Of a stretch of DNA of 50,040 nucleotides, positions 38,992 to 41,900 are shown piece by piece. The notes below the pieces were generated by a model. It saw only the letters and a list, made by a program, of their open reading frames with translations, was not told the DNA's origin and did no database searches. How positions within the stretch are numbered: the stretch's first letter is position 1; each line of letters begins with the position of its first letter. Made by a program: the position numbers and the translations under genes. Origin of the DNA: a virus (taxonomy: Duplodnaviria > Heunggongvirae > Uroviricota > Caudoviricetes); IMG/VR virus record IMGVR_UViG_2529293039_000013; one strand, 5' to 3'.

Positions 38992-41900
38992 ATGGGCAAA
39001 GGTGGCGGCAGGGCGCACACGCCTCGAGAGGCGAAGGATAATCTCAAATCCACGCAGATGATGAGTGTGATTGATGCGATTGGTGAGGGACCGATAGAAG
39101 GCCCGGTGAAAGGCCTGCAGAGTATCCTGGTGAACAAAACCCCGCTGACGGACACGGACGGCAATCCTGTGATACACGGTGTGACCGCGGTCTGGCGCGC
39201 CGGGGAGCAGGAGCAGACACCACCGGAAGGCTTTGAGTCCTCCGGAGCTGAAACCGGACTGGGCGTGGAAGTGACGAAGGCAAAGCCGGTAACGCGCACC
39301 ATTACATCCGCGAACATTGACCGCCTGCGGGTCACCTTCGGGGTGCAGTCACTGTTGGAGACCACCTCAAAGGGCGACCGTAATCCCTCTTCTGTCCGAC
39401 TGCTGATTCAGTTGCAGCGTAACGGTAACTGGGTGACGGAAAAGGATGTCACCATTAACGGCAAGACCACCTCACAGTACCTGGCGTCGGTGATTCTGGA
39501 GAATCTGCCTGAGCGGCCCTTTAACATCCGGATGGTCCGGGAGACAGCGGACAGCACCTCGGACCAGCTGCAGAATAAGACGCTCTGGTCGTCATACACC
39601 GAAATCATCGATGTGAAACAGTGCTACCCGAACACGGCGATTGTGGGGCTGCAGGTGGATGCGGAGCAGTTTGGCGGTCAGCAGATGACGGTGAACTACC
39701 ATATCCGAGGTCGCATCATCCAGGTGCCGTCAAACTATGACCCGGAAAAACGCACGTACAGCGGCATCTGGGACGGCAGCCTGAAACCGGCATACAGCAA
39801 CAACCCGGCCTGGTGCCTGTGGGACATGCTGACTCACCCGCGCTACGGCATGGGAAAACGTCTGGGGGCGGCAGACGTGGACAAATGGGCGCTGTATGCC
39901 ATCGGGCAGTACTGCGACCAGACGGTCCCGGATGGTTTCGGGGGCACAGAGCCGCGGATGACCTTTAATGCGTACCTGTCACAACAGCGTAAGGCATGGG
40001 ATGTGCTCAGTGATTTCTGCTCGGCGATGCGCTGTATGCCGGTATGGAACGGCCAGACGCTGACGTTCGTTCAGGACCGCCCGTCGGATGTGGTGTGGCC
40101 GTACACCAACTGCGATGTGGTGGTGGATGATAACGGCGTGGGGTTTCGCTACAGCTTCAGCGCCCTGAAGGACCGCCACACGGCGGTGGAGGTGAATTAC
40201 ACCGACCCGCAGAACGGCTGGCAGACCTCCACGGAACTGGTGGAAGACCCGGAAGCCATACTGCGCTACGGGCGCAACCTGCTGAAGATGGATGCGTTCG
40301 GTTGCACCAGTCGCGGTCAGGCCCACCGTGCCGGGCTGTGGGTGATAAAGACCGGACTGCTGGAAACGCAGACGGTGGATTTCACGCTCGGGTCACAGGG
40401 GCTGCGTCACACACCCGGTGACATTATTGAAATCTGTGATAACGACTATGCCGGGACCATGACCGGCGGACGTATCCTGTCCATCGATGCCGCCAGCCGC
40501 ACCCTGACACTGGACCGTGAGGTGACCCTGCCGGAGACAGGTGCCGCCACGGTGAACCTGATTAACGGCAGCGGTAAGCCGGTGAGCGTGGCCATCACTG
40601 CACACCCCGCGCCGGACCGGATACAGGTCAGCACCCTGCCTGATGGTGTGGAGACATACGGGGTGTGGGGACTCTCCCTGCCGTCACTGCGTCGTCGCCT
40701 GTTCCGCTGTGTCTCCATCCGGGAAAACACGGACGGCACCTTTGCCATCACGGCGGTGCAGCACGTACCGGAAAAAGAAGCCATTGTGGATAACGGGGCC
40801 AGCTTTGAGCCGCAGTCAGGTTCCCTGAACAGCGTCATCCCACCGGCAGTGCAGCACCTGACGGTGGAGGTGAGCGCAGCTGACGGCCAGTATCTGGCGC
40901 AGGCGAAATGGGACACGCCGCGGGTGGTGAAGGGTGTGCGCTTCAGTCTGCGCCTGACCAGTGGTAAGGGAACGGATGCCAGACTGGTGACCACCGCCAT
41001 CACCGCAGACACGGAGCACCGTTTCAGCGGCCTGCCGCTCGGGGAATACACCCTGACGGTGCGGGCGATAAACAGTTATGGCCAGCAGGGCGAACCGGCC
41101 ACCACTACCTTCCGGATTAACGCGCCAGCAAAACCCGCCACCATTGAACTGACGCCGGGGTATTTTCAGATAACGGCGGTCCCGCGTCTTGCGGTGTATG
41201 ACCCGACGGTACAGTTTGAGTTCTGGTTTTCGGAGGCAAAAATCGCAGACACATCTCAGGTGGAAACCTCTGCCCGTTATCTGGGGACCGGCAGTCAGTG
41301 GAGTGTATCCGGCCCGCACATTAAGCCCGGGAAGGATTTCTGGTTTTACGTGCGCAGCGTCAACCTGGTGGGGAAATCTGCGTTTGTGGAAGTCAGCGGG
41401 CAGCCCAGCAATGATGGTGAAGGGTATCTGGAATTTTTCCGGGAAAAAATAGGAAAACTGCATCTGGCTCAGGGGCTATGGGAGCTGATAGACAACAGCC
41501 AGCTTGCGGATGAGATGGCGGAGATGAAGACCACCATCACCGAAACCCGCAATGAAATCACACAGACGGTCAGTAAAACGCTGGAAGACCAGAGCGCCAC
41601 CATTCAGCAGATACAGCGCGTGCAGAAGGACACAAATGATGACCTGGCTGCGCTGTACATGCTGAAGGTTCAAAAACGAAAGACGGCATTCCCTATGTGG
41701 CCGGGATTGGTGCAGGGATTGAGGATACTGATGGCCAGCCACTGAGCAACATACTGCTGCTGGCTGACCGTATCGCGATGATAAATCCGGAGAGCGGCAA
41801 CAGCACTCCGTTATTTGTGGCGCAGGGGAATCAGCTGTTCATGAACGACGTGTTCCTGAAGCGTCTGTTTGCGGCGAGTATCACGTCATCCGGCAACCCC

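Follow-up and report, generated by a model that had tools for sequence, protein, structure and literature searches.

The J gene and its interruption

The DNA analyzed here, a stretch of 50,040 nucleotides referred to as the window, is contig AIFC01000020.1 of the Escherichia coli strain DEC2D (assembly GCA_000249215.2, a draft from 2012) and is a lambdoid prophage. Its gene J, which encodes the tip attachment and host specificity protein of the phage tail, is split into two overlapping reading frames within a short run of adenines. The following features make up the locus:

38992..41745, plus strand: 5' part of J (tip attachment/host specificity), EHU45761.1, 917 aa, consisting of 895 native and 22 out-of-frame codons followed by a stop
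41672-41676, plus strand: tract of five adenines (A5; six, A6, in intact J), the missing A causing a frame shift of -1
41677..42467, plus strand: 3' part of J in the -1 frame, with the central fibre (Phage_Tail_Tip) and the C-terminal receptor-binding domain (Ig_GpJ_C)

Positions 41670-41679 read t-c-aaaaa-c-g-a, which sets the bounds of the run exactly at 41672-41676 (caaaaacg). The frame that opens with the ATG at 38992 runs for 917 codons to the stop at 41743-41745; its last native codons, 894 and 895, are CAA AAA, and the 22 residues that follow are aberrant. Across the junction the -1 frame stays open up to the stop at 42465-42467. The 3' part has been annotated separately as an open reading frame (ORF) of 256 aa with a DUF1983 domain, starting from the GTG at 41697. 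The 917-aa protein, through whose exact match the source contig was identified, is named 'host specificity protein J [Escherichia coli DEC2D]' in GenBank and is a singleton.

A first-pass annotation, made from the sequence alone, had suggested that J is frameshifted, that the junction lies in the A5 tract and that one additional A would mend the frame, and had asked for an alignment to intact J genes. Our analysis confirmed all three points. J occupies 3476 nt in the window (38992-42467) and 3477 nt, encoding 1158 aa, in intact relatives, and the alignment to three intact 3477-nt J genes contains one single gap, A5 versus A6, which falls at 41672-41676. Once one A is inserted, an ORF of 1158 aa results, and its product matches the intact J protein of sister strains at 100% identity. 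The tract as such is ordinary, as the window contains 91 A5 runs, and its significance comes only from homology and from the broken reading frame. A functional J requires hub, fibre and receptor-binding domain in one continuous ORF; in J as written the frame breaks after codon 895, and the gene in the window is thus a pseudogene or a miscalled gene.

Relationship to lambda gpJ

The match to lambda gpJ, also claimed by the first-pass annotation, held up. In a phmmer comparison of the restored J with chain J of the PDB entry 8iyk (8iyk_J; E = 0), residues 1-834 and 864-1157 were aligned, and a 17-residue stretch of J aligns opposite lambda VKIEQTKDGKHYVAGIG. Pfam assigns FNIII-A_GpJ, Phage-tail_3, Ig_J and Ig_J_second to the first ORF (917 aa) and Phage_Tail_Tip and Ig_GpJ_C to the -1 continuation, with all six J domains above the gathering score and in the expected order. 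In addition, a tblastn comparison of gene order with the annotated 14EC017 prophage places J downstream of L, K and I, with lom and a side tail fibre gene following it. The gene is identified as a homolog of lambda gpJ/TipJ by its domains, by its homology over the full length and by its synteny.

Lambda gpJ (PDB 8iyk, 8k35 and 8xcg; C-terminal fragment 8xcj/8xck) has the same place in the operon after K and I and the same domain order. It differs in its length of 1132 aa, compared with 1158 aa for the restored J of the window, and in its C-terminal domain, from which that of the window J has diverged. Unlike the lambda gene, the window gene is interrupted after codon 895, corresponding to about residue 869 of lambda, which cuts off the central fibre and the receptor-binding domain from the hub. 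If the A5 is taken literally, the 917-aa product would retain the tail-tip hub and the Ig domains and would be devoid of the central fibre and receptor-binding domain, and could hence not mediate adsorption.

A5 and A6 within the clone

Further copies of the prophage were retrieved by searching for exact matches to the fragment proteins and to a Z protein (minor tail protein) specific to the clone. The retrieved assemblies comprised sister drafts of the same sequencing project (AIEV, AIEW, AIEZ, AFJB, AIFA, AIFB, which is strain DEC2C, and AIFD), two assemblies with contigs above 5 Mb (UFZD and UGEE) and the later independent drafts JANHLX, JBNHSW, JBNHRT, JBNHSV and CBCSKR. The exact window prophage was present in no complete E. 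coli genome, the best match reaching 91% coverage at 97% identity. For the 917-aa product and for the Lom variant of DEC2D, AIFC01000020 was the sole occurrence, and no independent assembly of DEC2D was found.

Alignment of UFZD01000005 with window positions 38618-50040 (11,424 nt) revealed three mismatches and one gap, namely the A-run of J. Eleven contigs of the clone, including UFZD, UGEE, AFJB, AIFD, AIEW, AIFA and AIEV, encode an intact J with the same amino-acid sequence as the restored J, and the seven named here carry the same IS21 insertion. Nine other clone members that were checked have an intact J, seven of them being read as A6 and two by their gene call. Within the clone, A5 is shared by DEC2C only (AIFB01000046), where a Logan contig assembled from the raw reads SRR490662 is 100% identical to the DEC2C contig and also reads A5. 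The J locus contains no other derived character and no informative shared substitution that would join DEC2C and DEC2D.

Three substitutions, at 39111, 39114 and 42516, are private to the DEC2D contig when compared with all eight relatives covering these sites; the first two lie 3 nt apart in the 5' region of J. This 5' part is probably repeated elsewhere in these genomes, since the DEC2C contig breaks at 40831. The three substitutions could reflect mixing of prophage copies in the consensus rather than mutations.

A5 and A6 in wider collections

Outside the clone, A5 is rare. Of 612 records of complete E. coli genomes, at least 2 contain the exact A5 65-mer, a number that has to be read as a lower bound because an A5 copy with one extra substitution scores like an A6 copy. 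Both genomes are O157:H7 strains (ATCC 43889 and AUSMDU00002545), and in both of them gpJ is flagged as frameshifted by the Prokaryotic Genome Annotation Pipeline (PGAP). They carry the identical A5 65-mer at the homologous run of tccP-carrying prophages, with J split likewise; however, the prophages and J alleles are different from those of the window, and across the J region the identity between the two is about 96%. An exact A5 40-mer had no match in GTDB genome contigs. Metagenome contigs of the JGI gave 0 A5 and 8 A6, and a scan of IMG/VR contigs with 32/33-mers gave 4 A5 versus 71 A6.

All four A5 contigs of IMG/VR fall into two blocks of IMG identifiers, in which 4 A5 and 11 A6 were counted, compared with 0 A5 among 60 contigs elsewhere (Fisher p = 0.001; for the 25261646xx block alone, p = 0.009). 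The latter block holds drafts of the project that produced DEC2D, as IMG 2526164666 is 100% identical to contig AIGQ01000043 of DEC10B, a strain of this project. The other A5 alleles are 81–97% identical to the window. A5 was thus found in at least six different J alleles, i.e. those of DEC2C/D, DEC10B, three other IMG/VR contigs and the two complete O157 genomes, and since these contigs carry different J alleles, the events are independent of each other.

In DEC10B, J is split into four ORFs with several other changes of run length, in a region of very low quality. The same contig (AIGQ01000043.1), when compared with window positions 45928-45983, shows ten single-base insertions within 60 nt that lengthen homopolymers in the collagen-like repeat of the tail fibre.

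Recoding and phase switching

A split gene with overlapping frames may be functional if the ribosome or the RNA polymerase slips on the A-run and produces a full-length J, in analogy to the G/GT frameshift of lambda, which is located in the same late operon and likewise joins overlapping 0 and -1 frames. The two halves of J do lie in the 0 and -1 frames and overlap at the A-run, and tRNA-Lys can slip on A-rich sequence. However, the slippage of G/GT is conserved in homologs and uses a canonical slippery heptamer, whereas the split of J is a rare variant: among IMG/VR contigs 71 of 75 have A6 and a continuous ORF, as do all 8 from metagenomes, and the exact A5 65-mer is absent from 610 of the 612 complete-genome records. 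The incoming codons, GTT CAA AAA CGA, contain no X XXY YYZ heptamer; the site is not a slippery one because a P-site CAA cannot re-pair on UCA, and only the Lys codon in the A-site re-pairs in the -1 frame. The 100 nt downstream (41677-41776) fold with a minimum free energy of -31.7 kcal/mol compared with a mean of -29.1 for shuffled sequences (z = -0.75; pseudoknots lie outside this fold), and are therefore, unlike those of a G/GT-type site, no better structured than shuffles. Transcriptional slippage would need a longer tract, as A5 is too short for it to be appreciable. The G and T ORFs of the window look normal. Programmed frameshifting was rejected on account of the unconserved split, the non-canonical heptamer and the unremarkable downstream sequence, and we give it next to no credence.

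A second possibility is that the A-tract constitutes a contingency locus, in which, among the lambdoid prophages of attaching-effacing E. coli, reversible slippage between A6 and A5 toggles the part of J that binds the receptor. The recurrence of A5 in at least six different J alleles speaks in favour of such a locus. The 6 (or 5) bases of this tract fall short of those of known phase-variable tracts, which usually number 8 or more, and the off state (A5) is rare outside one sequencing project. The apparent preference for this site is moreover in part a matter of ascertainment, because only the A-run of J was searched. Phase variation of this kind is highly improbable, and the related suggestion that the A6 near codon 895 might be a recurrent slippage hot spot, acting as a low-frequency switch that uncouples the J fibre from the hub in the effector-carrying prophages of enteropathogenic and enterohaemorrhagic E. 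coli (EPEC/EHEC), is an equally distant prospect. Taken jointly, recoding and phase switching are very unlikely.

Frameshifts in other virion genes

Translation of the genes of the annotated relative 14EC017 onto the window was used to map frame breaks. Six breaks were found in the virion genes, affecting terL, portal, the S49 protease (twice), tape measure and J. Apart from J, they are the following:

24526..24531, plus strand: terL frameshift, A6 in the window and A7 in the intact gene
26388..26389, plus strand: portal frameshift, TT in the window and T in all relatives
27257..27259, plus strand: first frameshift of the S49 head protease/scaffold gene, GGG in the window and GG in the relatives
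27353, plus strand: second frameshift of the S49 protease gene, an extra A (CTGTAGCA versus CTGTGCA) outside any homopolymer
34260..34263, plus strand: tape-measure frameshift, A4 in the window and A5 in the intact gene

The A4 of the tape-measure gene is common to every clone member whose DNA covers the site, including the independent drafts JANHLX and JBNHSW, and is therefore a real ancestral lesion. The A6 of terL recurs in AIFD and in two read-level Logan assemblies of related prophages (SRR1237867 and DRR381755) and was for this reason also read as real. Inactivating virion lesions that are reproduced in independent assemblies characterize a cryptic lambdoid prophage, and the window carries such lesions. 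The prophage is hence defective regardless of J, and virions are impossible whichever way J is read, because the terminase and tape-measure frameshifts recur in independent assemblies.

The situation is different for the portal insertion and the two protease insertions. They lie within 966 bp of each other and are private to DEC2D when compared with all of the 7-12 relatives. Each sister draft has its own distinct 1-nt indels in the segment of 25-27.5 kb, with a ratio of indels to substitutions near 1:2. The contigs of later drafts begin at about 28.2-29 kb, so the 25-27.5 kb segment is probably a repeat. From these sequence comparisons, the portal and protease insertions are probably assembly errors.

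The six frameshifts can therefore be divided into inherited lesions (terL and tape measure), probable assembly noise (portal and both protease breaks) and the undecided case of J. That all six are errors was ruled out by the recurrence of the tape-measure and terL lesions in independent assemblies. A uniformly noisy assembly was ruled out as well, as only the repeated 25-27.5 kb segment is noisy: about 30 genes in 1-21.5 kb that could be matched to relatives are all in a single frame, some 12.5 kb of alignments above 99% identity in this region contain no indel, and private indels relative to modern assemblies are zero in 28-41 kb.

Two further assemblies with contigs above 5 Mb, VXJM01000001.1 and CP044350.1, show a terL run of A8 and about 20 other 1-nt indels in 4.3 kb over the part that corresponds to window positions 23271-27617. 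This prophage module is full of homopolymer errors in some long-contig assemblies, too.

Miscall or deletion in J

In either case the change from A6 to A5 would be an unprogrammed shortening by one base at codons 895/896, at a site that is neither recoded nor regulated. The A5 of DEC2D and DEC2C is probably a homopolymer-length miscall in the drafts of 2012, a reading that we hold with modest confidence; the true J of the strain would then be the intact 1158-aa allele found in the rest of the clone. As expected for an artefact, the variant tracks the sequencing batch and not the phylogeny. The roughly 100-fold enrichment of A5 in the batches of one project is without biological explanation. 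The drafts of this project demonstrably hold single-base errors, and the insertion pattern of DEC10B is the signature of flow-based chemistry. In the IMG block, 3 of 11 copies are A5; if the site is miscalled at this rate of about 0.25 per copy, two A5 among the eight project assemblies of the allele is the number to be expected. Similar to the homopolymer errors of flow-based, pyrosequencing-type methods, the lesion is a one-base change in the longest run class of the gene, is confined to the drafts of one project from 2012 and one neighbouring IMG batch, and occurs in a project whose contigs contain many other 1-nt indels. The lesion, the identity of the restored protein, the reality of the tape-measure lesion, the recurrence of the terL lesion and the batch association were observed directly, whereas we infer that the A5 call is technical rather than biological.

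Several observations weigh against a miscall. A5 was called in two separately sequenced strains, DEC2D and DEC2C, and since the read-level Logan contig also has A5, the miscall would have to be the majority call of the reads and to recur at one site. The flow-based chemistry of the project drafts is itself assumed from their error patterns. Outside the repeated 25-27.5 kb segment, the DEC2D contig has no other private indel over 11.4 kb compared with UFZD and 13 kb compared with JBNHSW; nearby runs of 6 or more bases are called correctly, which differs from what is usual for flow-type errors. With a contig as clean as this, a general error rate of 25% at runs of at least 6 is untenable, so that only an error specific for the site would fit. 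Finally, the lesions in terL (A7 to A6) and tape measure (A5 to A4), which were read as real, have the same signature as J, i.e. the loss of one A.

The same observations lend themselves to the alternative that the ancestor common to DEC2C and DEC2D lost one A from the A6 tract through slipped-strand mispairing and that J is a true pseudogene. The loss would then represent the further decay of a prophage whose terminase and tape-measure genes were already inactive and which is retained on account of its cargo (sodC, NleG, EspW and lom). The assemblies of two strains and a read-level Logan assembly agree on A5, and the DEC2D locus is otherwise accurate when compared with UFZD. Selection does not act on J in a truly defective prophage, and the real lesions in terL and tape measure also consist in the loss of one A from an A-run. 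The A5 of the two complete O157:H7 genomes, with their gpJ flagged as frameshifted, suggests that real A5 alleles may exist. A deletion, however, does not account for the enrichment of A5 in the batches of the project compared with everything else, and DEC2C and DEC2D have no other joint derived character at the locus, while J is intact in the nine other clone members. In addition, few real indels are expected at a single run, given about three substitutions in 11.4 kb. A real deletion is accordingly a serious possibility, albeit one that falls well short of probable.

Both the miscall favoured here and a deletion are ordinary phenomena, i.e. homopolymer miscalls in flow-based drafts and slippage pseudogenes in cryptic prophages, and the lesion fits them without anything novel. 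A one-base homopolymer change that splits a tail gene of a prophage is routine and of little biological weight, and the facts are already public, as GenBank shows the halves of J as separate proteins and A5 gpJ is annotated as frameshifted in the two O157:H7 genomes. The case does suggest that split J genes in DEC drafts from around 2012 should not be counted as pseudogenes without read support. It also shows that sister assemblies and read-level assemblies can separate inherited lesions from assembly noise. The prophage itself looks like a fixed carrier of sodC, lom and effector genes of the type III secretion system (T3SS) rather than a transmissible phage.

Prophage layout and neighbouring features

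The remaining features of the window are the following:

1-21.5 kb: early, regulatory and lysis genes
8578-8654 and 8679-8766: Hfq-binding small RNA isrK and C4 antisense RNA (Rfam, above gathering score), adjacent to each other inside a Rha-family regulator gene
15439-15688: three tRNA genes (ARAGORN) with anticodon CAT, Arg-TCG and Arg-TCT, downstream of the antiterminator gene
17058-17227: STnc100 (Rfam, above gathering score), upstream of a large esterase/DUF6645 gene
22.7-38.1 kb: virion genes from terS to the tail assembly protein I
38334-38858, minus strand: sodC, Cu/Zn superoxide dismutase, 175 aa, Pfam Sod_Cu
43183..45136, plus strand: insertion sequence of the IS21 family, 1954 bp (IstA 340 aa, IstB 259 aa), between lom and the tail-fibre gene
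46871-47350: NleG-like ORF, N-terminally truncated, matching residues 57-211 only of its relative
47480-48538, minus strand: EspW
48617-49267, minus strand: NleG-like gene, intact
49450 onward: IpaB_EvcA-type chaperone

The sodC gene is a moron that lies on the opposite strand in the gap of about 850 bp between I and J, and is also found in the related prophages AMSHJX01 and 14EC017. J is followed, in this order, by lom, the IS21-family element, the tail-fibre genes and the T3SS effector genes with their chaperone. The IS21 element is located at the identical place in all DEC1/DEC2 members of the clone and in the UFZD and UGEE assemblies, and it may cut the tail-fibre and effector genes off from transcription of the late operon.

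The window begins inside the prophage (left end, 1-700). In the related prophages, the left end abuts a truncated tRNA-dihydrouridine synthase gene and lacks an annotated integrase gene. At the opposite end, the effector cargo spans 46871-50040, and beyond the prophage end, as seen in the source contig and in relatives, the chromosome resumes with an adjacent pair of ATP-binding cassette (ABC) transporter genes, encoding a permease and an ATPase.

The tRNA with the anticodon CAT is assigned to Met by ARAGORN and annotated as tRNA-Ile in related genomes, and the placement of the three tRNA genes resembles that in Stx-type lambdoid phages. Compared with the allele of 14EC017, 42 nt are missing in frame from the gene for the minor tail protein Z (31030-31050), reducing the protein from 191 to 177 aa; this represents an allele and not an error, because the exact 177-aa protein was found on 12 contigs.

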